The notes below the pieces were generated by a model that was not told the origin of the DNA, did no database searches, and saw only the letters and a program-made list of their open reading frames with translations. From assembly GCA_013239625.1 (NCBI GenBank), contig MU053369.1, positions 97,479 to 161,478 on the forward strand: a stretch of 64,000 nucleotides of DNA, given 5' to 3'. The DNA is from Lama guanicoe. Its lineage: Eukaryota. Within the stretch, counting starts at the first letter, position 1; every line of letters begins with the position of its first letter. Made by a program: the position numbers and the translations under genes. This document shows positions 31,010 through 58,665 of the stretch, piece by piece.

Positions 31010-34000
31010 GGGATCCCAGGCAAGGCTGCTCTCGCTCCGACCCCTGGTCTCTCGGGAGCCACGGGAAAGGCCTGTTTCCTTGGCACAGCCCGGCCATCAC
31101 AGATCCCAGCCTGCATTTGCCAACTCAGACAGCCTAGACTCCTACTTGCGACTCTTACTTCTGTTCTGTTCGCCCCCCAGAATGTGATGGACTCTTTCAG
31201 AAAGTCTGGCCTGTCTCAAGCGAGACCAAGTCAGTGAAGGATGAAGTGTCCACATTTGGACCAGAGCATGAAAGGAGAAACAAGGCCTCATGGCCAGCAT
31301 GACGGTGGTGGCCAAACCCTTCCCCTGGGTGAGATGAACCAGGGTGGGGGTGAGAATGCAAGGTCCCTTCACGACTGACAGGGGTGTTGTAGACTCACTA
31401 CAGCAAAATAACGACATGGCCGTCAGTGGTGGAATCAGCTGCAACAGACACAGAGTCAGATATTAACTGCCAAAAAGGGGTAAAAGTAAAGGCCGGCGCA
31501 GGGAGGCCTGCACGGCTGCTGAGGCAAACCACAGACCCGGCTCTTAATGCCCACTGGCTGAAGCAGAGTGGAAGCTATGGTCCCCTTTAGCGGTCCCTGT
31601 GTCCACCAGATCCAAGTGAACCAGCTACTTAGGAGAAGGCCATGTTGTCCTGATACTTAGAAAAACCAGCCTCATAAAGGGAACAAAAGAGTGGCATGTA
31701 TTTTAGACCCGCTCCTGCCCCTCTATGAATGCAAAGTAAAGTAAGTGGCACTGGGAAAGTGAATGCAAAAATAAAAACAAAAAACAAAAAACCGGTGACT
31801 GCTTCCTCCAACAGCGTCACCTGCAGCTGCTCACCCCCGAGCCGGCCACTTCCTCACCAGTGACCGCCGGCCAGGAAGCGCCGTCACGCACGTCACACAG
31901 CGACAGCCAGGAACCGTGTGCCGAGCACGTTTGTGTAAAAGCCAGAATCAAGCAAGGTGCTGCAGATTTTGACTTTCCAACTTTAAATAATCCATGAAAA
32001 AAATCCCTAAGTCACCGCCTAAATCAATTCGCATCTCACTTCTTCAAAACAAATAAACAAAATTAGTAAGAGCGCATTTGTCACCAAATATAAGGAGGAA
32101 CAAACAGGTTCCTCAAAGCAAGGACTTTAACAGGTATCAAACTCCAGTGGATGATGCACTAACAGAGCAAAAATTCCAAAAAACTAGAAAATAAGAAGAT
32201 GACTAGGATAATATATGGATCAAGGCAACTGTTAAGTTTTTACTTTTTAAAGCGATGGAGACAGCACAGAGGGCGATCTGGCTATTTCCAATGCAGGGTG
32301 TGCACAGCCCACATTTTCAGACCCAACAACATGCTCACAGGGTGGTATAAGAGAAAAAGGAAAAGAGGAACAGCGAAAATTAGAAACACACGAGAACAGA
32401 AATAACTGAGAGCATTTACAAGAATTTACGAGAGTGTGATGAGGACAGGGACGTGGGGACGGTGAGACCCACCCTCACCTCCTGATCCAGGGAAGGCAGG
32501 GGCCTGAGGGGAGCGGCGCTAACGGGGGACCCAACGTGGTCAGCGCCCCAAACCAAAACTTCACCTAGATGCGTGTAGACAACTTTTGAGCTACAAAATG
32601 TGGTCGCATTACAAGCTGGACAATTTTACTCACTCCCACCAAGAGAAACAGGGGAGAATTAGGCTCTGCTCCTGCACCAAAGCATTGTTTTAACAATTAA
32701 TGACTGTGGAATAGTAAAAGCAACAATGGAGTAAAAGTGACTGGAAGAGAACGTGCTTGACCCAAGCTCACTGGCCGCGTTAACTCACTGACGTTCAGAT
32801 GCTGGCTAAGCCCTTATGGTACCAAAACAGACAGACCCACAAGGAGGGAGGTTTAATGCGCTGCTGTATTTTGATGCCTGGAGCCATACCTGGTACACGA
32901 GGTTCTGGGTAAACAATGGTGACAGTGTCAACCACTATGGGCTAAGCACACATCCAGCTACTCCGCCAAATCCCAAGGACAGACTTCAAAAGGCAAAAAC
33001 AAGCTGGAATTCCCTGGTGGGTCTGCAGTCTCAGAGCCAAACAGTTGCTGAGCAAAAATGTCACCAGTGTCTCCTATGACAAAAGAGGAGGCACTGGCCT
33101 GGGGGCTGGGGCAGGAATCCGGGCTTCCACTGCTCACTCACCAGTCTGTCCAGGGGGAGAAGGTGGTCCCTGCTTACGTTGCACCGATGCACCTACATTG
33201 ACTAACGCCTGGGGGCTCAGCAGGAGGTGACAGGTGAGGTGAACGGAGCCAGCCTGCCAGTGGCCGGAGCTGGCAGCTGTGCCCTCAGCTTTGCCCAGGC
33301 CACTAAACCTGCCAGCTCATCTACAAGGAGCAGAAGGGGAGTGCGGGCGCATAGATCACAGGGCCCTGCGAGGACAAGTACAGATCATGGCCACGACATG
33401 CCTCTCCCCTTCCTGAAGCCGCAGTGGCATGTCCGGGGAGGAAGTGAAAATTAATCCAGAGCCCGCCAGGCACCACATGCAGGTGGGACACAGTTCCCCT
33501 GTGCCTGTCATTCACAGGACTGGTGTGGACTTTCTTTTTATCAATTCTCTGGCATCTTCTCCTCCAACTTACCAACAACCAGAAAGTAAAATCTGACGTT
33601 AGAATCACAGAGCACCCCCTCCACAGCGGGCCCGGCAGCACGTGCCATGTCCTCCAACCATCACCTGTGGTACCGCCATGAGCGCTCTCCAGACTCAAGG
33701 CCTGAGGCCGTAGGCTGGGGGGACACAGCTCCCCTCAATCTCCCGAGTAAAGGGGGACCACTCATCGGCAAAGACATCTCACCCTCTTCTGCCCGAGGGA
33801 CAACTTGAAAGATACACAGGGAAACATAGTAGAGGGTGAGGAGGTAGGCAGCCCAGAAGAGCTCATCTGCACTTCCAAGGCAGAGTGGGGCCTTTGACCT
33901 AATCACAGGGACAAAGTGAGGATGAATTTTTCCCTGCTCTGTCCCATTCTCCGTGACACGCATTTCCCTTTGTAAGGAGCTATTTTGGAAGCACCTGTCA

Positions 34001-34181
34001 GTGTTTCTGATGTCCTAACTTGGCATGGCGGCTTTCAGGCAGGGTAGAGGGCCTGAGCCTTGCTGGTGCTGGGCCTGGGAGGCAGGAGACACCGGCTCCA
34101 CCCCCAGCTCAACCAACTCCTCATTCTGCATCTCAGGATTCAGAGTCTCATTTATAAGCAAAGGGATGAAACTGTCCAAGG

Positions 34182-34494
34182 ACAGGCTGTCCAACAGGAA
34201 TGAAATGAGAGTCATGTAAATAACATTTCCCAGTTGCCACGTTTAAAAAGTAAAAAAAAAAGAAAAAAATACTAGAAACTGATTTTAAGAACAGATCTTA
34301 CTTATTCTACTGTATGTAAAACACTATCATTTTGACATGTAATCAATATAGAAAGTAACAAGATAGTTTAAATTCTTTTTACTAGACAAGTTTCAGCGTC
34401 TGATGTGCATTTGACCTACAGCACATCTCAGCTCAGACCAGCCTCCTCCCCTGCGCTTCTAGCATCAGTGGCTGTGGCTACTCTATTGGACAGC
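34182..34494. mobile_element. MER33/MER3-like hAT-Charlie non-autonomous DNA transposon
   Basis: Terminal inverted repeats gctgtccaacag ... ctattggacagc around an AT-rich core containing tttgacatgtaatcaatat. Confidence 0.75.
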
Positions 34495-34732
34495 AACTCC
34501 AGGGGTCCCACCAAGTGTTCTGGCTGAAAAGGGGGAGTAAGTGTCCACACTAACCCTAAAAGGATCTCTCTGAAACAAAGGCGGATTCACTTTTAAACGT
34601 CTGAAAACCGGCGGGCTGCACCTCTTTCCCGCCTTGGCTACAAGACAGCCCTCCTCCATGCTGATCCCATTCAGGACATAGGGAAGCAACCTTTCACACA
34701 GCCAGGGTGGCCCGGCCTCCAGGTTGACTTGC

Positions 34733-35305
34733 CTGCTGTCTGTGTCCAGTCCCACGAAGTCCTCCTTCTCAAACAGGATGTAGAGGAAGGGAGTCTTCTC
34801 CTGAGAATTTTGGGGGTCCCCATCCAGGCACTTGGACTTGGGCAAGATGAAGAGTGACTCAGTGAAGTCCTCGATCCTCTTCTCCACCACCCTGCAGTCC
34901 TTGTAGATTGAAGGCCACGTCAGCGCGCGGCTGCTCGGCCACCTCCCCATACAGCACAGAGACAAAGAGCTGAGAGTCGTAGAGCGTGGTGCCATACAGC
35001 TCCTCTGGGCGTGGAGCTTCTAGAAGGTCTTGGCCAAGAGGCAGTCGGTAATGATGACAAGGCCCACGACATTGCGGTGGGTCTGGAAGTCACTCCATCC
35101 ATTCTCGGGTGCATAGTGATACCTATAGTAGATACAGGGTGCCCACTGGGAGCCGCACGGGCTGATCTGGCTCACCAAGGAGATTCCATTATAGATGCAA
35201 AAGAAATTCTCCTCTAAGATGATCCCCACGGGTTGGACCACAACGGGAAGAGTCTGGTGGTCCTCAGCACACTGCACGTAGTCAGGGGCGCTCATGTTGC
35301 AGGCC
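34733..35305 (-). pseudogene. TRAPPC9: Unprocessed pseudogenic copy of the first coding exon of TRAPPC9 (NIBP, TRAPPII subunit)
   Basis: ATG at 35295 opens [32 protein letters not shown]...[19 protein letters not shown], and the exon ends [14 protein letters not shown]...[14 protein letters not shown]. This matches the TRAPPC9 N-terminus as I recall it ([24 protein letters not shown]...[12 protein letters not shown]). Acceptor tctcccctctcggcag| lies 10 nt before the ATG; donor-like CAG|gcaagt at 34732. Lesions: TAG at 35020-35022, a 1-bp and a ~5-bp deletion (frameshift then restoration), and in-frame losses of ~3 and ~12 nt. Confidence 0.95.
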
Positions 35306-35732
35306 CTGCCGAGAGGGGAGAGTGAACCGATGTACATACTGTGCTGTGGGCTTCGGGCCTCACTGGGTTGCAGCAACCTGGTGTGTACCAGACAGAAGGC
35401 AAGGGAAGCCCAAGAAAATCGGAGGTAAGTTTGTTCTCAGCGTCTGCACATGGATACTGTAGTTCAGATCACATTACCCAGCTTTTGGTCTAGGCTTCCA
35501 TCCCCTGCTGAAAAGGGTCATTTCTTGTTTTCTGATTCCAAGCACCTAGGCAGGCCCTGATGCAAAGTCAGTGCTCAAAACTGCTGAATAAAGGAATGAA
35601 TAAAGGAACTGCTTCCCCACCTCTCAGCAGAGCAGGATATAAAGAACCATAGTGGGATCAAAAGATCTGGATTTCAACTCAAATTTATTTGAACTCCTAA
35701 GGTGCAGAATAATGGGTAAGAAAACTTGCTTT

Positions 35733-35947
35733 GGGGAGGAGGGTACAGTTCAGTGGTAGAGCACGTGCTTAGCATGTATGAGGACCTTGGCTCAATCCTC
35801 AGTACCTCATTTTAAAAAATGAAACAAATAAGTAAACCTAATTACCCCCCTCAAAAAATATTTTTTCAATTCAAAATTTTAAAAAAAAAAACACCCTGCA
35901 ATTGACACAACATTGTAAACTTGACTATACAAAAATTTAAAAAAAAA
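35733..35947 (+). mobile_element. tRNA-Ala-derived camelid-type SINE followed by a short L1 3' terminus
   Basis: ggggaggagggtacagttcagtggtagagcacgtgcttagcatg...taagtaaacctaattacccc, A-tail, then aattgacacaacattgtaaacttgactatac and a second A-tail. Confidence 0.8.
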
Positions 35948-38082
35948 TCCTTGCCTTACAAGACTATATCTGGATTATGGAAGTTTGCAAATGTAAAATG
36001 CCTAGGGTACCACCTGCATAAGAAGAAGGAACTGTACAAATGTACTATCCCTCATTTATGAGCTATTTTTCCTTTGGGGAGATTATAAGTTCTCAGAGAT
36101 ATTTTTCTCATATTAAAAAAAAAAAAGAAAGCATTACCTGATTCTCCATACTGCTGAAGAATCAGATAACCCTACGAAAGCATCTGACCCACAGAGTTTA
36201 TTCAATAAATGTTTGTTGAATGAATGAATAAACAAGCAAAGTGAATGCTGCTCCCTGCCACAGACCATCATAATGGTACTGCTTGGAAATGCCAAGCCCA
36301 CGTTCCACCCGACTCTACACTAACCACGTGGGTGACCTGGGCAGGCCTGTGTGCTTCTCTAAACACCAGTTTATTCATAAATAGAAATGAGGGCAATAAC
36401 ACAAACATAAAAGGGTTAGTGTGTCACGAATTAATAGTACCCCAACTTTGGAAGATGGAACTATTAAAGAAAATTGGGCAAAGAGCCCATAGGCCCTCTC
36501 CGTATTATCTCTTACAACTACATGGGAATCTACATTACATCTAAAAATAAAAAGTCTAATTTTTTAAAGAGGCTATTGAGGTTAAATGAGCTCACTGTCT
36601 CAAATAAGGAACACACAGTACAAATAAGCAATGTGCAGCCCATGAAATACACTCAGTATATATTCCCACTGAACCCACTGGTCCCTCCAACTTCAGAGCA
36701 CGAGGAAGTGTCCTCGTGGTCAGAGGCCACTGCACCTGAAGCTAACAAAGCTAATGGTCCCCACTTTCAATAGCCCATGCAATCACACTAGGTCTAACTT
36801 TGTATTTGTAATTTTTTTCTTTTTATTAAATAGAAATCCCCAATTGCATAGCCTTCAGGTCACCAAAATCTGACCACAGAGATCATGATGGCAACCCTCC
36901 TTGGTGAAACAATAAAATGAAAAGCCATTTCCACAAGACCTGTGTGTAAATCTACTAGGGAACTTCATCCTGGACTGAGAGGAAGAGGACTGGGGAGGAG
37001 GGGGCAATCTGAGGCACACAGACCCATGGGCCACCTGTCCCACGATGGACATTACACTCAACCCTCACCCTCCAGGAACTTCAAAATACACACGACATAG
37101 TGTACAATATATATATATATATTTTTTAAAGAAATCCCTGACTCTCTAGCAGGTCTTTTATCTACCGAGACACAAATGGCTTATGTATATAATGTTTCAC
37201 AAAAGCCTTAAAATATTATCACGCCAATTTGACACATTAGGAAACTAGGGAGAGAGGTTTATCACATTGTGCAAGATTAGAGAGAGGTCACCTCAGACAC
37301 CGTATTTAAACCCAAGCCTTTGCTCCAGTGCTCACACTAGAAAGTGTGACATACTGCCCCCTTCCTGCCCACTCCCTGCAATAAATCTCTGAAGAGTCTT
37401 TTCTGTGCCACGTGGAATCACAATCACGTCAATTTACCACAAAGAGCTATGTGACTCCTTGGAGGACGTGTCAAAATCTAAAGGGTTGGGATGGGAGGAG
37501 AGATTTGCATTTTCTGTTTCTCAAAGGAAACATGGCTTTAAAAGAAACTGAAAAGCACTTATCTAGTCTAAGCCCTCATTGTGCAGAGAAGGAAACAGAG
37601 TCTCTGAAGAGATGAGGAAAGGGACTTATTAACAAATATCGCCTCAGGGCAGCACCAAGCCAGCCCTGGGCCCTTCTGGGGGCGGATCTGGGAGGCCCAG
37701 GAGAATGAGTGTTAGAGAAAGAAAGAGAAGAAGCATAAAAGGCCTGTCTCTACACCACCATACCATGAAATTCCACCAAATTATCCAGTATGGGTGCAGC
37801 CAATATTAAGGTGGGCTAAACAGGTTATAGAAACCTGGAATTCTCAACCATAGTGGAAATTCCAACATTTACTGTGCTTGTTTCCCAGTTCAAACATCAA
37901 CTCAGTGGGCACTCTGTACCAGGGACTACACGAGGCCTGGAGTTCTCCCAAATACAGATCTCTATTATCACGTGTGCAAACCACACACAGGCCCACCAGA
38001 AGAAAAACGCCCACACATAAGATGGAACTACTGAAACAGAAAAGAGCCAACCAGCATATATTGCTAGCAAAAACGGTGCTGC

Positions 38083-38345
38083 TAGAAATAGACTCATGGA
38101 CATAGAAAGCAAACTGTGGTTAGCAGGCAGGAAAGGGAGGATTAACAGATACACATTAATAAATATAAAATAAATGACAAGGACCTACTATATAGCACAG
38201 GGTACTATATTCAATTTCTTGTAATGAGTTGTACTAAAAACATTCTGAAAGACATGTATATACATATGCATATGCTTATAACTGAATCTCTGCTGTACAT
38301 CTGAAGCTAACATGGTAAATTGACTACACTTCAATAAAAAATAAT
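38083..38345 (+). mobile_element. 5'-truncated L1 3' end
   Basis: agaaatagactcatggacatagaaagcaaact...aaggacctactatatagcacaggg...ttgactacacttcaataaaaa. Confidence 0.85.
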
Positions 38346-39139
38346 TTTATATAATAAGTAAAAATAAAAGCAACGCCATAAAAAAAAGTAAAAGTACACG
38401 GTAATCCCCTTAGCTGTAGGTGGTGGAGAACTCTGCAAGCACCAAGTCCACTCGAACACTCCAGCACTGGCTGTCACTCATTCTAACCATCAGAGAATCA
38501 CTTGGCTTCTAGGAGGTTACTTAATTGCCATCCTCCCCAGATCTATGTAAAGGTTACTTCCACCCAGGCAGTGACTCCTGAAGGACAAGAATCATGTATG
38601 AACACAGTCTCAAATTCAGAACAGAACCTGACAACAATTAGGCTCTGGAGTCTGTGTTTAGCGAGTGTGGAATCTCAGTGATTCCAGCTCTTACACCTTG
38701 CCTTCCCATCCCACCCTTCACGATATGGCCCTTATGACCAGTTCTCCTGGGACTGGGGCCACGGAACCCATTTACAGGACTGGAAGAATCTCATCATGTA
38801 AACCATCCCCCAGATTATCATCAAGGGTCACCTGCATTTCAGGGATCAGTAATCCCAGAAGCTTTGCAGTTCAGGCAGCTGAGGGATTTTTATATCAGCT
38901 CTGTCTTCTACTGTGACTGCCTGGGTGACATCAGACAAGGAATTCTCAAAAGCCTGAGCTTTTCCTTTCAGGAATAATCTAATTAACAAATCTCATTGAC
39001 CATTTAACAAATGTGATGTGAGGATCAATGATTTACAAAGGAGTACAACATTCACTAGGTTGTGGATTTAGAATCAGAGAAAAATCATTTGAGAAAGATT
39101 GACAGAATGCAGCTTTAATGCAAATTTAAGTATTCTTAC

Positions 39140-39249
39140 CTTTCAGTAAATCATCTTCTCCTACTTATCACTTCACCCAAGTTTAAAAGATGTTTGAGAA
39201 TAGGGATGAGTGTGCCAGCAATCTGTGACCCAATAACCTAAAATGTCAC
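39140..39249 (-). other. Candidate exon (110 nt), probably non-coding or decayed
   Basis: Acceptor cccctgtttttcctag|G, strong donor AAG|gtaaga. Confidence 0.45.
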
Positions 39250-39400
39250 CTAGGAAAAACAGGGGAGTAACACATTTTTAAAAAGCATAGTGAGGATGGC
39301 GGGGGAACATCCCCCAACTCCAGACTAAGAAGCTCTGAGTAATAGCTTTCCTGCCTGCCTGGGGCATCAGCTGATGTGAAAATCCACCCAGAAAACTCAC

Positions 39401-39471
39401 TGTCCAGCAGCTCTTCCGTGACACAGCCTACACTTTCTCAGGATTAAGAATTGCGTCCAGTAACCACTTGG
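39401..39471 (-). other. Candidate exon (71 nt) just downstream of the GC-rich array
   Basis: Long polypyrimidine acceptor ctctcttgttctcctttgtctttattattcag|, donor ACA|gtgagt. Confidence 0.45.
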
Positions 39472-39551
39472 CTGAATAATAAAGACAAAGGAGAACAAGA
39501 GAGTTCTGCCCCTCCCCAGGGGTGAGCCCAGACCTTGGGCTGCATGCACTG

Positions 39552-41677
39552 CGCCCACCTCCCAGGAGAAGGATAAACTGGAGAAGGNNNNNNNNNNNNN
39601 NNNNNNNNNNNNNNNNNNNNNNNNNNNNNNNNNNNNNNNNNNNNGGACAGCCCCTCGCTGCCTTGGCAGCTGCCTCCGACCCCTCAGCACATCCTGCCCA
39701 CCTCCGGTGGCTAAGCTGTCAGGGAAACTGTGCTTTGCGACCTGGGGCAACAGAGGCTGCCCCCACGCCAAGCTGCGGAAGAGATGGGAGCTAAACCACC
39801 AGCTCCCAAGCAACAGGCTCCATACCCCCACCAACACCGCACCGCCCCCGCACCCTACCGCACCCCTGGGGCAATATGACCCGGAGAAGGGTGACCTGGG
39901 AATGAGAGGCAGCAGAAGCCGCCCCCATGTTAGGCCTCCAGAGAGATAGGAGCTTATCCTCCAGTTCGCCAGGGGCAGCCCGCCTCTCCTCTCCACCCTC
40001 TGATCTCACCGAGCCCACCTCCCAGGAGCAACCTGACCGGGTGTGGGGTGTCAGGCGAAACTTGGGCGGGAGGGGCCGTCCCCAGGCCAGGTCAGGGGAG
40101 AGGAGAAGTGGCCCCATTAGGCGGGGATGCTGGCCGTGGCAGCTGCCTCTGTCCCTCGACCGCATCGCGCCCGCCTCCCAGGAGCAAGCTGACCTGGAGA
40201 CGGACCTCCGGCTTCTTGGGCAGCAGAGGACGCCCCCAGGTTTGGCCGCGGGGAAGAGGAGAGCAAATTGACAGGCCCCGCGCTGCAGGTCCTCTACCTC
40301 TGCAGTCGCCACCCCCCGCACCTTAAAGGCACCGCCTAGGGCGCCCCTCCCCCAGCAGGCTGAATGGGACAGGTGTGTCTGGTGACCTAGGGCAGGAGAG
40401 GCCACTCCCACACCAGGCCATAGGGGAGAAGGGAGCCAATTCACCAGCTCCCCAAGGCAGCCCCCTACCCCCGCAGCAGCCACCATTTTTGCCCCTTGAC
40501 CTCATGGTGGTCTCCTCTAAGGAGCAGGCTGACCTGGAGATTGACGTCCGGCGAACTTGGGACAACAGGGACCGCCCCCAGGACAAACCATGGGGGGAAA
40601 TGGGAGCAAATGGACTGGCTCCATAGGAAAACCTGCCACTGCTGCCACCAACCCCAACGTACCACGCCCGCTTCCCGGGATCAGGCCGACTAGGATACAC
40701 GTGTCTTGTAACCCAGGGCAACAGAAACCGCCCCCAGGACAAGCCGCGGGGAAGATGGGAGCAAATGGGCCCGCTCCCCCGCTGCAGGCCCCCGACCCCC
40801 GCCACCCCTGCACCCTGATTACCCTGCCTCCCGCCCCCAGCAGGCAAAGTGGGACAGGGGTGTCCCGGGACCTGGCGCAGCAGAGGCCGCCTGCAGGCCA
40901 CGCTACACAGACATGGGAGCTAGTCCACAGGCTCCCCCGGGGCAGCCTCCCTATCCCCGCAGCCATCACCTTACCAGCCCCCTGACCGCACCGCACCCAT
41001 CTCCCAGGAGCAAGCTCTCCTGGAGACAGACCTCAGGCAAATCTCCGGCGGCAGAGGTCGCCCCCAGGCCAGGCCGCGGGGGAGAGAAGAAATGGAGCAG
41101 CTACCTGGAACGGTCCCCCTCCCCCTGGCGCCGCCGCCGCCGCCTCCCAGGAGCAAGCTCACCTGGAGACCTGCGTCCCGCCTCTAGGACAGCGGAGGCC
41201 GCTCCCAGGCTCGCCGCGGGGGAGAGCGGAGCGAATTGACCGGCTTCCGCGCGGCAGCCCCCTTACCCCCGTGGGTCCCGCACCTTTTTGGCACCGTTCC
41301 CACTCCGCACTCAGCAAGCTGAGTGGGACAAGCGTGTCCAGCGACCTGGGGCAGCAGAGGCCGCTCCCACGCCCGGCAGCCGGGACAAGGCAGCTATTCC
41401 ACCAGTTCGCCAGGGGCAGCCCCGCTCCGCCCCACTGCCGCTGCCGCCGCCCCCTGACCTAACCACCCCACCTCCCAGGAGCAAGCTTACCTGGAGTCCA
41501 ACATCTGGCGAATCTCTGGCGGCCAAGACCCCCCCAGGCCAGGCTGCAGGGAAGAGAGGAAATCGACCGGCTTGCCCGGGCAGCCTCCCACCCGCCGCCG
41601 CCGCCGCCGCCGCCNNNNNNNNNNNNNNNNNNNNNNNNNNNNNNGAAATCGACCGGCTTGCCCGGGCAGCCTCCCAC

Positions 41678-41715
<38 letters not shown>
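39552..41715. repeat. GC-rich diverged tandem repeat (satellite-like), ~161-bp monomer, ~13 copies, ~485-bp trimer periodicity
   Basis: The anchor CCCAGGAGCAAGCTGACCTGGAG (and variants), followed by GGCAGCAGAGGCCGCCCCCAGG and a purine-rich tract, recurs at about 39568, 39710, 39871, 40028, 40184, 40355, 40524, 40681, 40840, 41010, 41153, 41314 and 41481. Confidence 0.9.
41592..41713 (+). repeat. (GCC)n trinucleotide tracts flanking an assembly gap
   Basis: Pure CGC/GCC runs at ~41592-41614 and ~41678-41713, with a 30-N gap at 41615-41644 between them. Confidence 0.9.
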
Positions 41716-41802
41716 CCAAACCATTCCACCAGCCTCGCAGGGTCACGCTGACTGCGAGGATGTGCACTTGCCTTCTGATCCTACCCAAGTGCCTGAGCAC
41801 CT

Positions 41803-41963
41803 CCCTGCACCCCTACACTCCCTGCACTTCTGCACTCCCGGCACTTCTGCACCCCTACACCCCCGCATCCCCTGAACTGCCTGCGCCCTCCACAGCCCCT
41901 GCACCCCTGCTACCACTTACACTTTTGCACTGCCTACACTCCTGCACCCCTGCATGTCCCACA
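41803..41963 (+). repeat. Degenerate 8-9-bp tandem repeat (CCCTGCAC)n; minus strand GTGCAGGG
   Basis: cctgcacccctacactccctgcacttctgcactcccggcacttctgcacccctacac...cctgcacccctgca. Confidence 0.75.
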
Positions 41964-48420: not shown

Positions 48421-50019
48421 GATGGACCTTTATATACTGATGGGAGCCAACTAGCAGGAGAACAAAATAGATGAGGTAGTGACAGAGAGGATGGTTTTGG
48501 GAGTGACAACCCAGAGAAGATGGGAGGGATGGGGCCTCGGGGACTTTTGGAGGAGAGGAACTGGGATGTCACTTGTAATAAGCGGTGGGGCACCGAGAGT
48601 GAGGTCACAGACATCAGAAGGCGAGCGGATGTGCTGGGAGTTGCTTGTGAAATTTCTCTTCTGTTGGCTTGTTTGCTTGTTCAAAGTAGAAAAGTAACCT
48701 TACCAGCGGAGGAACGAGGAGGAAGAAAGAGTTACTGGAGCCATGAGCAGTAGATAAGAAAGAGCCTTCCAGGGAGAATGGGACAGTGAAAAGGGCAGGG
48801 GGAGATGGGGGAATGCGCTCCCAGAAAGTTACATTTTCTCTTTGACGTCCCCAAATGTGTGATGTGTGATTGCCCTTCCTGCTGTCTACAAAATAAAAAT
48901 TAAGTATGGTTCAGAGGAAATGCTATTTCATTCTAAGAGGCTGCCTGTTTCTCAGGAATGGNNNNNNNNNNNNNNNNNNNNNNNNNNNNNNNNNNNNNNN
49001 NNNNNNNNNNNNNNNNNNNNNNNNNNNNNNNNNNNNNNNNNNNNNNNNNNNNNNNNNNNNNNNNNNNNNNNNNNNNNNNNNNNNNNNNNNNNNNNNNNNN
49101 NNNNNNNNNNNNNNNNNNNNNNNNNNNNNNNNNNNNNNNNNNNNNNNNNNNNNNNNTATCCTTTTCTTCCATGGCTTCCTTAATATGCAGTTCCCCTTGG
49201 AATTTAAGAATGTCTGGTATAAGAAGTGAGAAACAGTTTGAGAAAATCCCGGCACAGAATTACACAGCACAACCGCATCTCACAAGTATATACAGCCGTA
49301 AAACAGTTTAAAAGCAAAACTCCGTAACTACTCTTAAAGACCTTTGCAAACCTGGGCCTGCCAAGATGTTTCCAAACTGGAAAGGAACTCCAATCACTAG
49401 CCAGGTACCGGGACCAGAGGTTGGTCAGTCTTTTCTGTAAAAGCGAGAGAGTAAATATTTTCAGTTTTACAGATCATTTTGTTGTAACCATGCAGGTCTG
49501 CAATAAGAAAGCTAAGAGCACTGGGAGACAGGAAACAAATGGGCATGCCCACATCCTCTCTTCCACTCAGGGCAGCTTCTCTGTGGTGAGGAGCTTTGCC
49601 ACAATCACTTGCTTCTTTGTTTCTGATGGTTTCTTTGTTTCCACCTTACTGCTCAAGCTCAGAACTTCAGGTGGGCCTGGTCCTTCTGCATCCATGCAGA
49701 GAGAAGGGTGAGCGGGGGTGGGAACCCCACCTGATGGATTAGAGAGATTGCTGGGAGGGACACTGCAATGGCCACCATGACACGAGACAATCACACCTTC
49801 CAGGGTGAAAGGGAATGAAGACAAGGGAGGGACACAGCAGTGGGACCCCAAGGTTGCCTGCCAGGCTTGCTCTCCCTCCACGGCCACCCTGGGGGCCTGG
49901 GTGGTGTTGGAACTCAGCTACAGTGATTAGGCTGAGGGGACTCAGGATAAAGGACCCTCCACCTCCTCACTAGGTTCCAAACGCAGCCCCTCTATGTCCA
50001 CCCTCTGAGTTTCTGGAAC

Positions 50020-50347
50020 TCAGCTGGAAGAATATATGAGCAGGCCAGACCCAGAGCCCAAGCCAAACATGACAGGGGTCACGTGGGGTTGTAACCCCGT
50101 GCTCAGTGGTCGGGGACTCCTTGCAAATCTGCAGAAATCCCTGTTCTGCCTCATTCCTGGGAGAAACCCCACATCTCCTTCTGCTCTGTTAGTTCTTCTC
50201 TTGAGGCTATTGTCCTGGAGGGATGCAGAGTCCTTGAACCTAGCCCTCCAAACGTACATAAGCAGACTGTTCAATAAAACAAATTATGCACTTTTTCACA
50301 TTTGCCAGTTTTTTGATTCCAGAAAGGCTTTGGGACTCATTCTCACA
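50020..50347 (+). mobile_element. Probable old LTR fragment
   Basis: acataagcagactgttcaataaaac...gggactcattctcaca; poly(A) signal and CA end; left boundary uncertain. Confidence 0.4.
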
Positions 50348-52929
50348 GTCTCCTGTGCCCCCACCACTTGGTGGCCCTCTGCTCATGGAAACACGATTTC
50401 CCACAACTGTACCCTGCCTCCCAGATGGTCAGAGGGGAGTGTCCCACAAAGACACAGGTGTTTGTGAGGATCCTGTCCCCCAGCAGAAAGCCTACTTCTG
50501 GAGCCACGGACAGGGATCTGGCCTCCTGAGCCGCTCAGCTCTAATTCAAAACCTAAACTGGGGGCCCCGAACATTGCTGAATGACTTTCTGAGTCACCTG
50601 GACTGGAGGGGCCTGATTTTTATTCCCAAGAATGGAAGTAGCGCAGCCTCCATTTTCAGGGATGACATTGATGATGGATCTAGTTCACCCCACTGCATCC
50701 CAGGAAGGAGAGGCCCTTCCATCCCACAGCTTGGAAACCCAGCCCAGGGGAGTTCTGAAGCAGTGCATCGCTGCCAGGTCCAGCATCCCTGCAGAGTGGC
50801 CTCTGTCCCTGAATGAGCCCCTTCCCTGGGCCTTTCCTGCCCCGACATGACCACATGTGCCAGAGCTCTGGGGCTCTGCATGTCCAGGGCACACAGGTGG
50901 GACCTGAGCCAGGTGTCCCCTGGGCCTCAAGGGGGAGAGGTCTGCCTCTGCATCAGGGGAAGGTGACCCCACATGGCTGGCAGGACACTTCCAATATGGA
51001 CCTCCAGGAGCCCAGGGAGCAGTTTCCCTGCAGGTGTTAGGAGCCACATCAGGAGGGCAGGCCCCTCTTTGTGCAGACCATCCCGCAGTGCTGGGCCCAC
51101 GTGCAGACCACAGAAATCTACATGCCCCCAGGATACCCCAGGCAACCTCACAACTTCGTCACTTGGTGACCTGGGTACCACAGGCTCCTTGGCCATCCCA
51201 TGAGGGTGGTCCTTGCAGACATGGCCTCCAGGTACCCACGTTAAGAAGTCCCCCTGGGTTTCTGTGGTCACAGAGCCCACACCAGAAGATTCTAGTCCTG
51301 CAGTGACCCCCACAGCAGTCAACTTCCCCATGCATGTCCAGGGACAAATGACAGCAATTTATTGCCAGGAACCGTGATGAACAAGGGGGTGGGATTCCAT
51401 AATAAGTTCAGGATCCTGGTAACTCACTATGCACCCCAAAAAGCATCCATGAGAAATGTGTGTATTGGGATATCTGTGCCCCCAGGACAGCTGCTCCTGA
51501 GGGCTCCTGGGACCCTCCAGCCCCTCTCAAGGTTCTCAGCGCCTGGGTCTAAATTTCTATCTCCCTCCTTTGGTGTACAGCCACCTGTGTCTCGTGGTCA
51601 CGGGTCACTTTATTGCATGACTTGGCATGTTCTTAGTGCTCGTCCTCCACCCCTGCACTAGACTCCCAAGATGTTCCCACTGACCCTTGGCTCCCTGGGT
51701 GGTTCAGGGGGCCTTAAGTCTGCACCCCTCACTCTCCTCCTCTACCCCCACCCCTGGGGCTACCCCTAGGTGGACTGGGAGGTGTTTGTAAATGAGTCTT
51801 ACACAAGGACACGCCTGGACAAAGCAGGACCCCACCCCCGAAAAGCACACCTGCTCCCTTGTCTGAAGAGGACCCCACAGCCCCACACTGCCTCCCAGGG
51901 GTCTACTCAGGACACAGTCCCCCAGTTCTGGGCAAGGCGTCTCCCTGGAATCCTTGCTTCCAGAAAGAGCCTCTCTGTCCTTCTTCAGAGTTTAGAGTTG
52001 TTCCCATGTTCCTGAGCACCAAGGTGCTCAGCACAGACCCTTCACTGTCCTGGAGAGACAAGGAAGATATGTGGCCACAGGTATCTCAGGATACACCTGC
52101 TGGGACCCCAGGCCAAAGGGCCGTCCTTCTGCCTTCTCAGGTGTGGATTCCGTGGTACCTTTTTGCAGGGGGCCCAAATGGGGAGTGGGGCCCAAAGCAG
52201 TTCATAGGGCTCTCTGGGCAGGGAAGACTTGGGCCAGGTGGCCTTGCCTGGTTTCCCTGCTGGGCCACTCTGAAAACCCCCGCTCCTCTGGCTGTGGCTG
52301 GAGGCCCCCCAAACCTCAGGGCGGGGCCCTTTCAGCCTCCACTGCCTCCAAAGCCAGGCTGGCGCTGGCGTGGGGAAAGAGCTTTCTTGCCCTCTTGAGG
52401 CCAAGTTGCCACAGGTGGATGCTGCGGGGAGCTGGAGAGAGAGGTAGCACTTGCTCAGATGTGAGTGGTTAGGCAATTTGACACTTTGTCAACTAGCCTT
52501 AAACATTGGAAAGAGGACTTTCCCGGGAAAGCTGGAAGTTACTTTCAGTAATTTGTCTAAAGATTTCTTTTTTTTTTTTTCCCTTAAAGACTCATAAAAC
52601 CTCTCCCAGGTCATTCCTGGTATGGACTATTATCCAGGGATCAATCGGGAAATGCAGGAGGAGAGGGGTGCATATGCGGGATAGAGGAGGGGAGATCAGA
52701 GCCCACGGAGAGGAGATGCCCCTCCCAGGAGCCACACACTGGGCACTGGCTGTTGGCATCCAGCTCTCCTGTTCTCAGGCCCATTTCATCTGCGGGGTGT
52801 TTCCAAAAGAAACAATGGTGGAAAGGCCATGGAGGACACCTAGACCTCCAGAATAGACAGGGGGAGCAGAGTCACCATGCTGGCCCTGGGCTTGGAGACA
52901 GACCTGCAGTGGAGACCACAGGTCTTCTG

Positions 52930-53462
52930 AGAACCCAGTTTCGAAATAAAGGCAGTATGCGCTGGAATACCCAGTTCGAGCGAGTGCTTCATCATAGACA
53001 TGTAATTTACATAGTTCTTCTCACCACGAATCTCTGTGTTCCCAACACACTACATGAATGATGGCTTCAACACACATTCATTTCTGAGATGTGAACAAGT
53101 GTAGAGCCGCTCTTTCATCCTGCATAATGGGCATGGTTACACCTAGGAACACTTACCAAGATTTCTCAGCAAGAGCCAATTTCGAAATAAAGGCAGTTTG
53201 CGCAGGGAAAGCCTGTTGGAGTGAGGTCTTCCCCTTACATATGTAAGTTATATAGCTCCCCTCACCATGAAACGCTGTTCCCAACATGCTACATGCATGA
53301 AGGCTTCGACACACATTCAGTTCTAAGATGTTAGCATGTGGAGAGCCGCTCTTTCATCCTGCATAATGGGCATGGTTACACCTAGGAACACTTACCAAGA
53401 TTTCTCAGCAAGAGCCAATTTCGAAATAAAGGCAGTTTGTGCTGGAAAAGCCTGTTGGAGCG
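52930..53462. repeat. ~240-bp tandem repeat relic (about 2.2 copies), satellite-like
   Basis: TCGAAATAAAGGCAGT starts at 52941, 53182 and 53421 (periods 241 and 239); the intervening sequence aligns between copies. Confidence 0.9.
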
Positions 53463-54329
53463 TGTTCAGAGCTGTTTCAGTCTCTGTCACAGCTGGAGGG
53501 TGCAAACCCCAACCTCCAGAAAGAGGGGCCAGGCCCCCCACCCGCCAGGTGGTGTTGCCTTTGTTGGAGAACAGTGATCTTTGGGTTAGATATTTTGCGG
53601 CTCTCTCTAAAACTTGCTTTGACTTAAGTTTGCATCCTAGTCACCAGTTCCAGGGCAACAGAAAAAGCATACCCTACATCCCTTTGCACTCAAATCTTCC
53701 CAAAAGAGCAAATATGTGCTCATGAAAATATCAGCTGCTCTTCTAAGGCCCCCTAAATTCCCAGCAGTGTGGGCGGTGCACTCTTGATCAGGGACAGGAG
53801 GAGAGGGACCAGCGGTCCTCTGGCAGGGTTGGCCCGGTGCGGCAGCTGCGCTGTGGGTGCGTGGTGGGGAGGGCCATGCAGGGAATGCTGTTTGAGGGGC
53901 CTCTGTGCACGCCTGCATTATGGTCTGAGGTTTCATACAAAGTCTCCAGGCATCGTAACTGGTCACATACAGCCCCCACCATCGGGCTGGAACCACCAGG
54001 AGCTCAGTATCTGTAACAGGGACAGTGCCTGGTGTAGGGAGAGATCATGGGACACTCCGGGGGCAGAGGCGGAGGTGCTGGGGAAGGCAGGGGATGCAGT
54101 GAAGGGTGGAGGAAGCAGGGTCCCTTGCTTGGGGGTGAGAGTTCTTGGGGAAACCACAGAGCATGGCACACAGCATCCCCACCCCATACCCCAAATTCCT
54201 AGCCCCGCCAACACAAGGGCTTCTCTGAACCCTCTCACCGTGGCTTGCCTGTAAGACCGCACCCAACCCGGCATCTGGCACCCCAGCCCTACCTCCCCTC
54301 TTGGGACAGATCCCGTCTTCTTGGAAACT

Positions 54330-55230
54330 GCCCATCAGCGCGAATTCAAGGCCGGCAGCGGGCCTGGCGGATTTGCACTTCAGGTGCCCTAACTGGCCAG
54401 CTGTGTGTGCCTGGGTTCAGTCCTCTCTCTTGCCCAACGGCAGCCTGGGTCCACGTCCGGTGCAAGCGGAGGCCGCGGAGCCCAGGCAGAGCCACGCATA
54501 CGGACAGGTGAGGGTGCCCCCGCCCCGCTGCCCCGCTGCCCCGCTGCCCCGCCCACTAGTGGCGGCACTGCCCCAGCCTCCGGCCGGCGCCACCTGCAGG
54601 TCAGGACTTCCACGTAGCCGCGCCCGCCCCGGGCCCGCCCAGCTGCCCCATAAGCCTCCCCCCAGCCCCCGTCCTGGCCGCGCCCTGGCTCCCATTGGCT
54701 CCGCAAGTTCTGCCCTCGCACGTCTAGCCTCGGAAGGAGGCACGACGCAAGCGCAGGGGAGGGCCCCGCGGCGTTGCCATGGCTACAGGCGCCGCGCCCC
54801 GCAAGGCCAGCGTGCACTTCTGGGGCGGGGAGCGGGCTCCGGAAATGTGTAGCTGCTAGGGACAATGGCTGTGCTTGCTGCTGGGGCTGGCGGCTTGCTC
54901 TGCCTGGCGACTAGTTCTGGCCTGGTCAGTCGGCGGCAGACATCTTGTCTGGGGCGGCGTCCCACAGATGGTAAACCTACGGCCGCGCAGTTGGCGGGGC
55001 CAGTGGACATGGACCGGGGTGGGATCTGGGTTGGTGTGGCGGCCGGGGAGGGGCTGTGGTGCCGGGGAGCGGGTTGGGGCGGGGGGGGACAGGGCTGGGA
55101 CACAGCCTCGGGCTTTCCTCCCCCTCGGGCTCTGGGGCTGGGACCGCGATTCCGGGTAGCCCTGAGTGGCGGCGGCCTCCCAGAACCCCCGGGAAGGGCA
55201 AGCGGAGGACCCGTCTTTTATGAAGCGGGG
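54330..55230. promoter_or_regulatory. CpG island / promoter carried with the POFUT2 copy
   Basis: Very GC- and CpG-rich. Motif matches: CTCF-like CCTGCAGGTGGCGC (minus, ~54587-54600), inverted CCAAT (ATTGG ~54694), RFX X-box-like GTTGCCATGGCTAC (54773-54786), GC box GGGGCGGGG (~54822-54830) and ETS-like CCGGAA (~54839), all just upstream of the ATG. Confidence 0.75.
54865..54970 (+). pseudogene. POFUT2: POFUT2 pseudogene exon 1 (frameshifted signal-peptide exon)
   Basis: Shifted frames read LCLLLG... and [18 protein letters not shown], matching POFUT2 ...FLLLGAV...[20 protein letters not shown]. Donor ATG|gtaaac at 54971. ATG to donor is 106 nt, versus about 131 nt expected from the human protein, so the POFUT2 frame is lost. 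Confidence 0.9.
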
Positions 55231-55626
55231 CCTTACCCGTGTTTTGAAGAGCCCCAGAATCAGATGTTGGAATGGGGTGGTTTATCAGCCTTGTTTATCT
55301 GCAGGGAAATTTCAGTTCCATCCAGATTTTGGCTCCCTCGGTAAACCTCAGGAATAAGACAAGGGTCAGTGCCGATTAGCAGTTATCTAGGGCTTGACTC
55401 AAAATAGACTGTGCGGGCTGTAGGGATGGTAGATGGGCCCTCCCTCTCAAGGTTGGCAGTCTTCTGGGATTAGAGGCCCCAGTGGAGGATTACATTCTCA
55501 TCTGCAGTAATGGAGGTTGTGGGAAACATTAACACAGGGAAGGTAGGGGTGTGGCTGCTGTAAATCATTAAAGAAACCAGGACCCTTGCCTGGCTCTTGT
55601 GTAGGAGAGTCTCGCCTAGGGTAGGG

Positions 55627-56097
55627 CAGCAGTTATCAAAGTGTGTCCGAGGCCCCTGAGATGCAAGACTATTTTCGTAGAAACGCCGGGATGTCACCTG
55701 CCTTTTGCACACTCTTGCACTCCAGAGTTTCCTGTGGGGTTTTCCAGGGAAAACCTGGTCTGTGATATCACAAAACAGGGAATGTAGAGGCAGATAGGAG
55801 AATTCAGCTCTCACCAGTCCAAAACAGATTTGCAGAAATTAAAATCACTGCTATTCTTCTCATTAATGATTTTTGTTTAGAAAAATGTACTTACTATTTG
55901 CTAAAGAGTATTAATGGTAACATGTAGTAGGTTGTTATTATTTTTAAGTGAACTCATAAGCATTTTTTAAAGTTCTTATTTAACTTCTAACACAGGAACT
56001 ATTGATAGATTTAACCCACATAAACAGCAGCCTTTTGGAGTCCTCAGTAATTAAGAGTGTACAGGGGTCTGTAGACCAAGAAGCTTGAGAGCCCCTG
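55627..56097. mobile_element. hAT-Charlie-like MER element in intron 1 of the POFUT2 copy
   Basis: Ends cagcagttatcaaagtgtg ... aagcttgagagcccctg resemble Charlie terminal inverted repeats. Confidence 0.55.
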
Positions 56098-56365
56098 CAG
56101 AACGGGTGCTCAGGTACTAGTCAGGTGCTTAGCGTTGTTAGACAGATGCCAAGATGTCTTCTGCATGTGCTCCCGGAGTCGAAGTAATTGGCCACATGGA
56201 GATGGGTGGGCAGTGCCTCCACTATACAAACCAGAAGCTGCTGAAGGTGTCTTGAGTCTAGGCCATGTGCTGTGCAGGGATTCCTGTTGTATCTGTTCTA
56301 TCTAAGCCAGGATTCCTGTGCAGAGGCCTGGCCCTGAAGACCCGCTCTCCTTTGCTCCCTGCCAG

Positions 56366-56615
56366 GTACCTTCTGTGTGACTTCAACTCTCTAGAGGGCT
56401 TCAGCCTCTGTAGGGGCATCTGTATCCACATCGCCTTCCTCCTGAAGACCCTGCTGAAAATGGAGGAGTCGGTGCTGGTGCTACCCGCTTGGGGCCGCCT
56501 CTACCATTGGCAGAGCCTGGACATCCACAGGTCCGGATTCCCTGGTCTTTCTTTTTTGATCTCTCAAGTCTCAACAGAAACATCCCTGACACTGAGTACG
56601 AACAGTTCATTGCAG
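56366..56615 (+). pseudogene. POFUT2: POFUT2 pseudogene exon 2 (protein O-fucosyltransferase 2, GT68)
   Basis: Acceptor ctccctgccag|, donor CAG|gtgaga. Reads [54 protein letters not shown], then a 1-bp deletion near 56528, then [33 protein letters not shown]2 has [83 protein letters not shown]. Confidence 0.96.
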
Positions 56616-57074
56616 GTGAGATGGTGATCGTTTAACTGGGGCCAGACGGTTGTTGTTCTGGTTCCGATGTGAACATCGGGCCGTCTTGCTTCGGGCTTGT
56701 CGGTCTGCTTAGGGGTCCTGCTCATGTTTCCCTCACTGCAGGTGAATTTGGTCTTTCCATAGTTTTTCTCAGGTAATATATCTGAAGTGTATGAGCTCTG
56801 TGTTCCCTCCCCTCTGAAAACCCTGGCCTCCTGGTGAGATGGAGCGGTGACAGGGAGGCCACTGCCACAGAGGCCTTGTCCCAGCAGGACTCGCTCCCTG
56901 GGCAGTAAGGGCCATTCTTACCTGAAGGAGTGTGTGTAGCATGGGCCATGTGCTGGAGAAGGTATTTAACCTCTCATTCAGTATAATTTGGTCCTTCTCA
57001 AACTTCCCATTTTACTTTGTGTAAGAGGTAAGAGTTGAAGATTTTCTTTGAATAAAGGTATTTAGAGCTTATCT

Positions 57075-58665
57075 TTTTTTAATTGAAATGTGGTTGATTT
57101 ACAATGTTTTGTTAGTTTCAGATACACAGCTGTTTTGTTAGTTTCAGGTATACAGCATAGTGATTCAGTTGTACATATACATAGCCTATTCTTTTTCAGG
57201 TTCTTTTCCATTATAGGTTGCAAGATACTGAATATTTTCCCCTGTGTTCTGCAGTGAATCCTTGTTGTTTATCTATTTTACATATAGTAGTTTGTAATTG
57301 TTAATCCCAAACTCCTAAGTTTGTTTTCTAAGTCTGTGAGTCTGTTTTTGTTTTGTAAATAAGTTCATTTGTATCATTTTTAAAAATTCCTCATATAAGT
57401 GATATCATATGATACTTGTCCTTCTCTGTGTGAGTTATTTCACTTTAGTGTGATAATCTCCAGGTCCACCCATGTTGCTGTAAATGGCATTATTTCCTTC
57501 TTTGTTATGACTGAGCAATATTCTTTTATATCTAAATACTACATCTTTACCCAGTCATCTGTCAGTGGGCGTTTAGATTGCTTCTATGTCTTGGCCATTG
57601 TAAACAATGCTGCTGTGAACATTGGGGTGCAGATATCTTTTGGAATTAAGGTTCCCTCTGGATATATGCCCAGGAGTGGGATTGCTGGATAAAATGATAA
57701 GTCTTTTTTTAGTCTTTTGAGGACTCTCCATAATGTTTTCTACAGTGGCTGCAACAAACTACATTCCCACCAAAAATTTAGGACGGTTCCCTTTTCTCCA
57801 CAGCCTCTCCAGCATTTATGGTTTGTGGATGTTTGAATGGTGGCCATTCTGACTAGTGTGAGATGATAACTTATTGTAGTTTTGATTTGCATTTCTCTGA
57901 TAATTAGCGATATTGAACCTTTTTTTCATATGCCTATTGGCCATTTGTATATCTTCATTGGAGAATTGCTTGTTTAGTTGTTCTGCCCATTTTTGGATTG
58001 GGTTGTTTATTTTTTTCTTATTAAGTTGTATGAACTATTTATATAGTCTAGAAGTTAAGCCATGTTCAGTCTCATCTTTTGCAAACATTTTCTCCCATTT
58101 CATAGGTTGTCTTTATGTTTTGCTTATGGTTTCTATTGCTGTGAAAAAGCTGATAGGTGTAATTAGGTCCCATTTGTTTATTTTGGCTTTTATTTCTGTT
58201 GCTTGGGTGGATTGTCCTAGGAAAACATTGCTGAGATGTATGTCAAATAATGTTTTGCCTATGTTTTCTTCTGAGAGGTTTATAGCGTCTTCTCTAATGT
58301 TTAAGTCTAAGCTATTTTGAGTTTGTTTCTTTTTTATTTTTTTTTTTTTGCGACTCTATTGTATGCTTTCGATTTGTGGTTACCTTTTTCTTTCAAGTAT
58401 ATCAACCCACTACTATATCTATTTCCTTTAGACTGATAATCACGTAGGCTCCAACACATCCTAAGAATAATGAGGAAAAAAAAGAAAGAGAAAAAAGTCT
58501 ATCTTTTCTTGCTACCGTCTCCCATCCCCACCTTTTTGTATTTTGATGTACTTTTTCTTTTTTACATCTTCATGTTTATTGTCTTGTAACTTGTTATTGC
58601 ATTTCCAACTATGGTTTCCCATCTCTATAGTATCCTGCTTCCTTTCTGTTTAGAGTAGAACCTTT
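57075..58665 (-). mobile_element. L1 LINE: 3' UTR and ORF2 C-terminus (to ~58320) joined to a probable inter-ORF fragment
   Basis: Poly(T) start, then ttgatttacaatg...gttagtttcagg and typical antisense ORF2 motifs (ggatatatgcccaggagtgggattgctgg, ttttgatttgcatttctctgataattag); 26-bp internal tandem duplication at ~57105-57156. Confidence 0.9.

Follow-up and report, generated by a model that had tools for sequence, protein, structure and literature searches.

A 64-kb window of the Lama guanicoe genome and a probable camelid family of mosaic segmental duplications derived from TRAPPC9 and POFUT2

In primates, the pericentromeric and subtelomeric regions contain mosaics of duplicons, which were reportedly reviewed by Bailey and Eichler in 2006, and the great apes possess core-duplicon gene families of the NPIP, NBPF and TBC1D3 type. 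These are among the known systems with which we compare a stretch of Lama guanicoe DNA of 64,000 nt (hereafter the window; G000:C729:97,479-161,478, from an assembly of 2.05 Gb in 55,231 contigs), in which decayed, intron-bearing pieces of two genes, TRAPPC9 and POFUT2, lie head to head. In human, TRAPPC9, POFUT2, DDX27, ARFGEF1, CSE1L and SUPT20H are unlinked. In the dromedary, a genome-wide association study gives 'TRAPPC9, POFUT2' as candidate genes at one locus, and its Table 2 lists DDX27, ARFGEF1, CSE1L and SUPT20H within ~270 kb in the same region (PMC10357240). In a study of the Bactrian camel, 'TRAPPC9-like' is regarded as a gene family, and 0, 4 and 8 copies of it are counted in three camel annotations (PMC10568864). 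In the alpaca, chromosomes 11, 17 and 36 are described as carrying pseudogene-rich repetitive blocks with NEK10-like, ATF5, FMN2-like, ABHD17A-like and other sequences (PMC13751797, November 2026, main text). No description of the block analysed here as a duplication family was found in our searches of open-access literature.

Our analysis indicates that the window is very probably one copy of an old mosaic segmental-duplication block of the camelid lineage, which formed once and was then amplified whole to dozens of places. An earlier sequence-only reading of the same DNA had recognized fragments of the two genes and had proposed a camelid counterpart of the primate hubs, in which duplicons are joined at GC-rich repeats, likely multicopy and collapsed in the assembly.

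Pieces of two genes and their parents

The TRAPPC9-derived segment is referred to below as the T unit, and X and Y denote the segments on either side of the POFUT2 piece. The window is composed as follows (window coordinates).

1-38,520, minus strand: proximal copy of the T unit, extending leftward past the window edge to C729:78,010 or farther, a gap starting there
3,124-3,240, minus strand: TRAPPC9 pseudo-exon, horse aa 342-380 (tblastn, 74.4% identity, E 1.6e-11)
10,001-10,123, minus strand: TRAPPC9 pseudo-exon, horse aa 296-336 (tblastn, 58.5% identity, E 1.4e-8)
26,127-26,225, minus strand: TRAPPC9 pseudo-exon, horse aa 212-244 (tblastn, 75.8% identity, E 2.4e-9)
~34,717-35,295, minus strand: TRAPPC9 pseudo-exon of the first coding exon, aa 1-196 (tblastn match 35,295-34,729, E 1.8e-52)
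35,323-36,934: stretch of 1.6 kb just upstream of the ATG exon, without counterpart in the TRAPPC9 parent (parent 5117-5176 corresponds to window 35,322-36,935)
38,523-49,545: segment X, multicopy, at fixed spacing to its neighbours and matching neither parent
49,546-58,203 (8.7 kb), plus strand: POFUT2-derived segment, colinear with the parent at C1971:2,706,252-2,714,167 (76-80% identity)
54,201-55,400, plus strand: remnant of the POFUT2 CpG-island promoter with pseudo-exon 1 (~54,805-55,026)
56,310-56,615, plus strand: POFUT2 pseudo-exon 2 (match to PDB 4ap5, the human POFUT2 structure, E 3.4e-9)
58,204-64,000, continuing past the window: segment Y, multicopy, always after the POFUT2 piece
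61,048-61,178, plus strand: non-POFUT2 terminal exon of annotated camelid 'POFUT2-like' models (P0124 and P0125, aa 104-141 and 188-225, 97% identity)

Horse TRAPPC9 (P0047) mapped exon by exon to the minus strand of the window in four pieces by tblastn, and the TRAPPC9 copy is therefore an intron-bearing stretch and not a lone exon. With intron-sized DNA between them, the pseudo-exons show that the TRAPPC9-derived part covers at least 32 kb. In a relaxed tblastn search, nothing significant was found on C729 for aa 245-295 or beyond aa 380, where N gaps might hide an exon. The region at 30,104-38,501 (~8.4 kb) is colinear, introns included, with the parent locus at C55226:31,084,001-31,090,810 (75-79% identity; the parent was compared over 30 kb). 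The parent exon (C55226:31,088,503-31,089,090) has an uninterrupted translation, a GTAAGT donor and 95% protein identity to horse, as compared with 56-65% in 38 other places including the window. Its copy in the window, exon 2 of the gene, is 82.1% identical to the intact exon over 591 nt and has accumulated deletions of 3, 12, 1 and 5 nt and one in-frame TAG. The sequence-only reading had described this exon with an acceptor and a donor; the exon on the minus strand is indeed present, but its donor is GC, as compared with GT in the parent. In-frame stops were found in 37 of the 38 non-parent places of this exon, the window included.

The POFUT2-derived segment begins 5.3 kb upstream of exon 1, contains the promoter and the first two exons with the intron between them, and ends ~1.6 kb inside intron 2, so that the promoter and two exons recognized earlier are borne out by colinearity with the parent. 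Pseudo-exon 1 (80.4% identity to the parent) carries frameshifting deletions of 14, 9 and 2 nt, and pseudo-exon 2 (84.8% identity) carries a 1-nt deletion at 56,527/8 and keeps its GT donor at 56,616. In the core of the island (54,601-55,000), the GC content is 0.70 and the ratio of observed to expected CpG is 0.75, versus 1.03 in the parent; 63 of the 164 parent CpGs are retained, and 56 CpGs are present that the parent does not have. The camelid 'POFUT2-like' models map to exon 1 (~54,805-55,026) and exon 2 (~56,304-56,620). As splice signals, these chimeric models require a GT donor at exon 2 and an acceptor at the novel exon, and the window has both; the terminal exon can be seen to have an AG acceptor, with a polypyrimidine tract, and a TAA stop.

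The parent exon 2 of POFUT2 (C1971, ~2.708 Mb) is open and gives the best PF10250 match in the genome. A genome search with the Pfam O-FucT profile returned this exon, 28 duplicon copies and four exons of another gene on C55221. The last four (C55221:1,003,834-1,021,656) show a different exon pattern; they probably belong to POFUT1 and are unrelated to the duplicon. The two intact parents thus occupy separate scaffolds (31.09 Mb on C55226 and 2.71 Mb on C1971), as expected from the earlier claim that the fragments come from unlinked genes. When the two parent regions were compared, only interspersed-repeat matches were found, and therefore the POFUT2 DNA does not lie next to the real TRAPPC9. 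Apart from interspersed repeats, segment X likewise matched nothing in the parent sequence compared (30 kb for TRAPPC9 and 20 kb for POFUT2).

The gene pieces in the window are pseudogenes; intact TRAPPC9 and POFUT2 genes exist at other places in the genome. The 231 open reading frames of at least 75 aa in the window contain no Pfam family above the cut-off and yielded one sub-threshold chance match at E <= 0.01; the seven translated open reading frames of the gene pieces also gave no Pfam family, being too short and too decayed. A match of the TRAPPC9 piece to L7Ae in the PDB (E 0.009) was rejected as chance. Exon 2 of POFUT2 is open, without a stop, in 22 of the 28 other copies, and it is frameshifted in the window copy. 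The dN/dS values of the window copies versus their parents are 0.30 and 0.38, and such pairwise values include the constrained parent branch. Sampled words from the window reached shares of 0.31-0.38 in the best DNA runs among the Logan contigs and of 0.11-0.21 in six RNA runs; these shares are not evidence of expression or habitat.

As to what had been seen before, the gene pieces, their decay by deletions in the TRAPPC9 exon and in both POFUT2 exons, and their head-to-head orientation (TRAPPC9 on the minus and POFUT2 on the plus strand) all stand, whereas the extent of TRAPPC9, the repeat array and the placement of a repeat have been corrected. The statement that no later exons are visible holds for POFUT2, in which the parent homology stops at 58,203, but not for TRAPPC9, whose three further pseudo-exons lie outside the range that had been described.

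Copy number, conserved order and private changes

Copy number was assessed with probes of 1.1-2.4 kb, the best 40 candidates being scored for each (a 19.5-kb probe, with 1 of 8,954 candidates scored, was uninformative). Every probe matched at 40 of 40 scored places, as the earlier claim of a multicopy sequence requires, and the window is accordingly not a single-copy locus in its own genome. The identities and the numbers of first-look candidates were 85-93% and 130 for the TRAPPC9 exon region, 85-94% and 237 for the POFUT2 promoter and exons, 88-94% and 77 for the junction at 49,546, and 88-94% and 95 for segment Y, the matches of which lie on the same contigs at the same spacing. For three further probes, the first-look candidates include common repeats: 2,888 for the distal T unit, 1,538 for a probe from the 10 kb beyond the window, and 5,297 for an arm of a palindrome on C729. 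As to the collapse in the assembly suggested earlier, no fewer than 40 diverged copies have been assembled separately, and the identity among copies is 85-95%.

Eight markers (in window order a-b-c1-c2-d-e-f-g) were tabulated from the lists of the best 40 matches, and their order was inspected by eye. They touch 107 contigs, 28 of which carry at least four different markers. On these 28 contigs, markers on one strand keep the order of the window, and no violation of this order was seen. Markers c2 and d are ~10.7 kb apart on C2129, C1869 and C1369, the same as in the window. On C1369, the conserved order extends from ~30 kb to ~240 kb, and the blocks are therefore at least 200 kb long. On seven contigs the T unit forms a tandem, its period being 57.6-68.2 kb, with three units on C2129, and X-POFUT2-Y follows the last T unit only; the T unit of the window is a direct duplicate of C729:17,432-73,351 (85-90% identity). 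Inverted pairs of blocks are present on C837, C4123, C8825 and C6476.

The left POFUT2 junction at 49,546 is spanned without a gap in 35 of the 39 other places, and a copy of the POFUT2 segment at C6476:43,198,429 starts exactly at this junction. The homologies, boundaries, copy multiplicity and colinearity were all observed directly. At C6476:42.92-43.36 Mb, in a scaffold of at least 43 Mb, at least five copies of the POFUT2 segment occur in both orientations; this cluster could be an older or alternative context of the POFUT2 duplicon.

These results bear on the proposal of a hub. The two gene pieces have diverged from their parents to a similar extent (75-80% identity), and their junctions are common to the copies; therefore, one mosaic block was amplified whole. 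Independently arriving duplicons are thus disfavoured by the similar divergence of both pieces, by the 49,546 junction in 35 of 39 places and by the order on 28 contigs. Nor are the pieces joined at GC-rich repeats: the POFUT2-side junction and, in a full-length copy, the TRAPPC9-side end lie in ordinary sequence, and the GC-rich array lies inside a segment of third origin. What survives of the earlier interpretation is that these are genomic, intron-bearing duplicates present in many copies.

The distance between the TRAPPC9 and POFUT2 pieces is 20 kb in the window, as noted before, versus 31-37 kb on 13 other contigs. This difference is due to a deletion of 13.6 kb in the window copy. A probe across position 38,520 splits in all 39 other places (24 match the right part only and 15 the left part only), and the flanks of the breakpoint are 13.0-16.3 kb apart on six contigs. 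In a full-length copy on C7163, the homology to the TRAPPC9 parent runs through the promoter CpG island to ~C55226:31,096,107, and ~10 kb of low-GC DNA of other origin lies beyond it. The spacing of the flanks and this full-length copy together lead us to conclude that the window lost 13.6 kb, comprising the CpG island derived from the TRAPPC9 promoter and ~10 kb of third-origin sequence.

The private changes, repeats and other elements of the window are the following.

30,701-31,009: perfect 155-bp tandem duplication (TRF, 2.0 copies, 100% identity)
38,518-38,522: breakpoint of the private 13.6-kb deletion, spanned in 0 of 39 other scored places
39,645-41,614: GC-rich degenerate tandem repeat inside segment X, flanked by N gaps and (CCG)n runs
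41,801-41,954: CCCTGCAC tract (GTGCAGGG on the other strand), microsatellite-like (TRF period 8, 17.9 copies, 63% matches)
46,868-46,939, minus strand: tRNA-like element in segment X (Rfam RF00005, 58.4 bits)
52,935-53,462: 239-bp repeat, 2.2 copies (TRF score 788)

The parent and the other T unit on C729 hold a single copy of the 155-bp sequence, as seen from overlapping alignments, and its duplication happened very recently or else is an artefact of the assembly. The 161-bp GC-rich array of the sequence-only reading has the GC-rich periodicity of ~160 bp ascribed to it, but it is degenerate rather than a regular array, and TRF makes no call on it at 39,645-41,614, even at score 30. The GC content is 0.66-0.69, the autocorrelation peaks at 156, 162, 486 and 969 bp, and there are higher-order periods of ~485 and ~970 bp, with ~67% identity at offsets of 498 and 971 in a self-BLAST comparison. 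The (CCG)n runs are located at 41,592-41,715, and the CAGGG-type tract described before is the CCCTGCAC / GTGCAGGG tract listed above. The 240-bp repeat also exists, yet not between the duplicons: it sits inside the POFUT2-derived segment, where it is an insertion relative to the parent (parent 7141-7157 corresponds to window 52,933-53,465). The tRNA-like element is probably the head of a tRNA-derived short interspersed element, and no rRNA was found in the window with Rfam.

Seven N runs are present in the window, three of them between the TRAPPC9 and POFUT2 pieces, and C729 as a whole contains 35 gaps totalling 29 kb of N. At C729:168,167, ~6.7 kb beyond the end of the window, none of the 39 other scored places matches the probe past query position 1689, which marks either a further shared breakpoint or an insertion private to C729. 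Farther along the contig lies a palindrome (C729:171,147-234,643, which would be window coordinates 73,669-137,165, outside the window) with arms of ~30 kb (171,147-201,310 and 204,431-234,643) that are 85-93% identical; its arm marker is multicopy. Its centre is a tandem ~248-bp satellite (199,687-206,050), the orientation of which flips near 204,430. The 239-bp repeat of the window is 65-68% identical to this satellite (C729:199.7-206.0 kb).

Origin of the block and rival explanations

Over 1.8 kb around the TRAPPC9 exon, the Kimura two-parameter distance is 0.05-0.09 between copies at the same position in the block, 0.13-0.15 between the proximal and distal T units, and 0.215-0.237 between the copies and the parent (0.17-0.20 if CpG sites are left out). 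In five POFUT2-like proteins annotated in Camelus and Vicugna, the same 10 residues are derived relative to the parent exon; therefore, most of the divergence from the parent is older than the split of those copies. Among the matches, named TRAPPC9-like and POFUT2-like models are confined to camelids. We infer from these comparisons an origin deep in the camelid lineage, which would have been followed by duplication of the T unit and then by amplification of the block.

In such a scenario, unspliced genomic front ends of TRAPPC9 and POFUT2 would first have come to lie head to head. The TRAPPC9 part would have reached from ~7 kb upstream of the ATG exon, promoter included, to beyond the exon for aa 342-380 (more than 55 kb), and the POFUT2 part would have comprised the 5' 8.7 kb, with ~21 kb of DNA of other origin between the two pieces in full-length copies and more foreign DNA after them. 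A tandem duplication of the TRAPPC9-derived unit (~58-68 kb) may then have taken place, after which dozens of places would have received copies of the entire block (T-T-X-POFUT2-Y and more, at least 200 kb), in some cases as inverted pairs. Each copy would have decayed independently thereafter; in the window copy, this decay would account for the frameshifts, the change of a donor from GT to GC, the 13.6-kb deletion, the 155-bp micro-duplication and the seeding of the 239-bp satellite-like repeat. Since the mosaic formed once and was amplified as a block, piecemeal accretion and scaffolding error are both disfavoured.

Several points weigh against this reconstruction. The divergence of the copies from their parent is high for a camelid-only origin and calls for either a very old origin or raised substitution rates, and camelid specificity appears only in which annotated proteins matched. 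No donor of segment X or Y turned up among the best 40 own-genome matches, where a parent would rank below the paralogues. The adjacency of the tandem T units rests on scaffolding, many of the boundaries being in N gaps, though it was seen on seven contigs, and the copy numbers are lower bounds set by the 40 places scored. The dN/dS values of 0.30 and 0.38 between parent and window do not clearly indicate neutrality. Full methylation would predict a less well preserved CpG island, and some copies might not be inert.

The last two points lead to the possibility, in our judgement unlikely, of a camelid core duplicon that was kept and amplified since some of its copies are expressed as a new chimeric gene, comprising the POFUT2 promoter, the signal peptide, the N-terminal ~100 aa and a novel terminal exon; truncated TRAPPC9-like proteins would be a second possibility. 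In its favour, the island of the window still qualifies as a CpG island and holds 56 CpGs absent from the parent, the donor of exon 2 and the acceptor of the novel exon are intact, most other copies of exon 2 have no stop, and the same exon chain is annotated in C. dromedarius, C. ferus and V. pacos; the dN/dS versus the parent, being below 1, points the same way. However, both POFUT2 exons of the window copy are frameshifted, nearly all non-parent TRAPPC9 exons contain stops, and an open exon of 79 codons in most copies is about what we estimate from shared ancestry plus ~4% private divergence. The pairwise dN/dS includes the constrained parent branch, and the encoded piece covers only positions 1-79 of the 326 of the O-FucT profile, most of the catalytic domain being gone. 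We give only a slim chance to a bolder extension, according to which blocks of at least 200 kb in ~50-100 copies would account for about 1% of camelid genomes and for much of the heterochromatin that is poorly assembled in them, and a POFUT2-derived CpG-island promoter would have stayed partly unmethylated for tens of millions of years. Such a promoter could drive a camelid-specific family of chimeric transcripts, in which the signal peptide and N-terminus of POFUT2 are joined to a novel exon, and the family would be the camelid analogue of the great-ape core duplicons.

Ampliconic sequence of a sex chromosome usually exists in many copies and forms palindromes, and it is often left on small unplaced scaffolds; the arms of known sex-chromosome amplicons are nearly identical. 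The palindrome on the same contig, the inverted block pairs on four contigs and the location of most copies on small unplaced contigs of less than 0.5 Mb would suit such an explanation. Nevertheless, we regard it as very improbable, given that the palindrome arms are only 85-93% identical and that copies lie deep in large scaffolds (C6476 at ~43.3 Mb, C2129 at ~7.6 Mb and C5183 at ~3.6 Mb). Hardly any credence is left for the view that both the juxtaposition and the multiplicity are assembly artefacts, such as chimeric scaffolds over N gaps or over-split haplotypes. The assembly is heavily gapped, and three of the seven N runs of the window separate the gene pieces; but the order and spacing recur on 28 contigs, the 49,546 junction is free of gaps in 35 other places, and the copies differ by 5-15%, which is far above haplotype divergence. 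In addition, the independent dromedary study places TRAPPC9 and POFUT2 together at one locus (PMC10357240). An old mosaic block that was amplified whole therefore remains our preferred explanation of the window.

Comparison with known systems

The block consists of at least 1 kb of non-transposon DNA with identifiable parents (8.4 kb of TRAPPC9 and 8.7 kb of POFUT2, introns included), as segmental duplications do. The conventional threshold for these is an identity of at least 90% between copies; the best copies here reach 92-95%, many show 85-89%, and the copy-to-parent identity is 75-80%, indicating an old family that straddles this threshold. The block is also a mosaic, as its duplicons come from different donors (C55226 and C1971) and X and Y match neither parent. 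It is thus a further example of mosaic segmental duplication, which is an already known class. A tandem macrosatellite array was rejected, the T unit being in tandem only twice (three times on C2129) before X-POFUT2-Y follows, and so was a sex-chromosome amplicon by the standard of near-identical arms, those of the palindrome being 85-93% identical. The pieces resemble processed pseudogenes in being disabled gene copies away from the parent locus. However, introns, promoter and upstream DNA are kept in colinearity with the parents, and the block therefore arose by duplication at the DNA level and not by retrotransposition.

The TRAPPC9-POFUT2 pair of the dromedary association study and the counts of the 'TRAPPC9-like' family are most simply explained by pseudogene copies of the block (PMC10357240, PMC10568864). 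The additional genes listed for the dromedary region hint that further gene fragments travel with the blocks or adjoin them. The block family can thus mislead gene annotation, and annotation errors are already in print. If 40 to ~95 blocks of at least 200 kb are assumed, the family would amount to roughly 8-19 Mb by extrapolation, and it seems to rank among the larger families of duplications in a camelid genome. With our markers and junctions, the blocks can be located and counted in telomere-to-telomere assemblies, and heterochromatic camelid chromosome arms could be checked for block content. The main relevance of these results is for camelid genome structure and annotation hygiene.

The pseudogene-rich blocks of the alpaca are similar in being multi-megabase-scale, fragmented, multicopy gene-derived sequence in repeat-rich DNA of a camelid genome. 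TRAPPC9 and POFUT2, however, have 0 occurrences in the main text of that article, and its blocks are reported there as absent or reduced in camels (PMC13751797), whereas the annotations of Camelus and Vicugna alike contain TRAPPC9-like and POFUT2-like models. Eight primers for the widely dispersed satellites VpaSat08, 09, 11 and 12 (Table 1 of PMC13751797) had no site, with up to three mismatches, in 355,662 bases.

The great-ape core duplicons provide another likeness, in that larger blocks have carried a promoter-bearing gene fragment to many sites and the annotations include chimeric gene models. By contrast, the copy in the window has frameshifts, and the camelid family is known here from sequence and annotated models. 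A close resemblance is to the mosaic segmental duplications of primates. In these too, pieces of unlinked genes have been brought, with their introns, next to other DNA, and the resulting composite has been duplicated again within a larger block. The gene pieces are likewise pseudogenes, and GC-rich and satellite-like repeats are embedded in the block. The camelid copies differ in being older and more diverged (85-95% identity, with many below 90%). Furthermore, the camelid block appears to be one mosaic that was copied whole, rather than the product of stepwise accretion at a hub, and its junctions are not located at GC-rich repeats.

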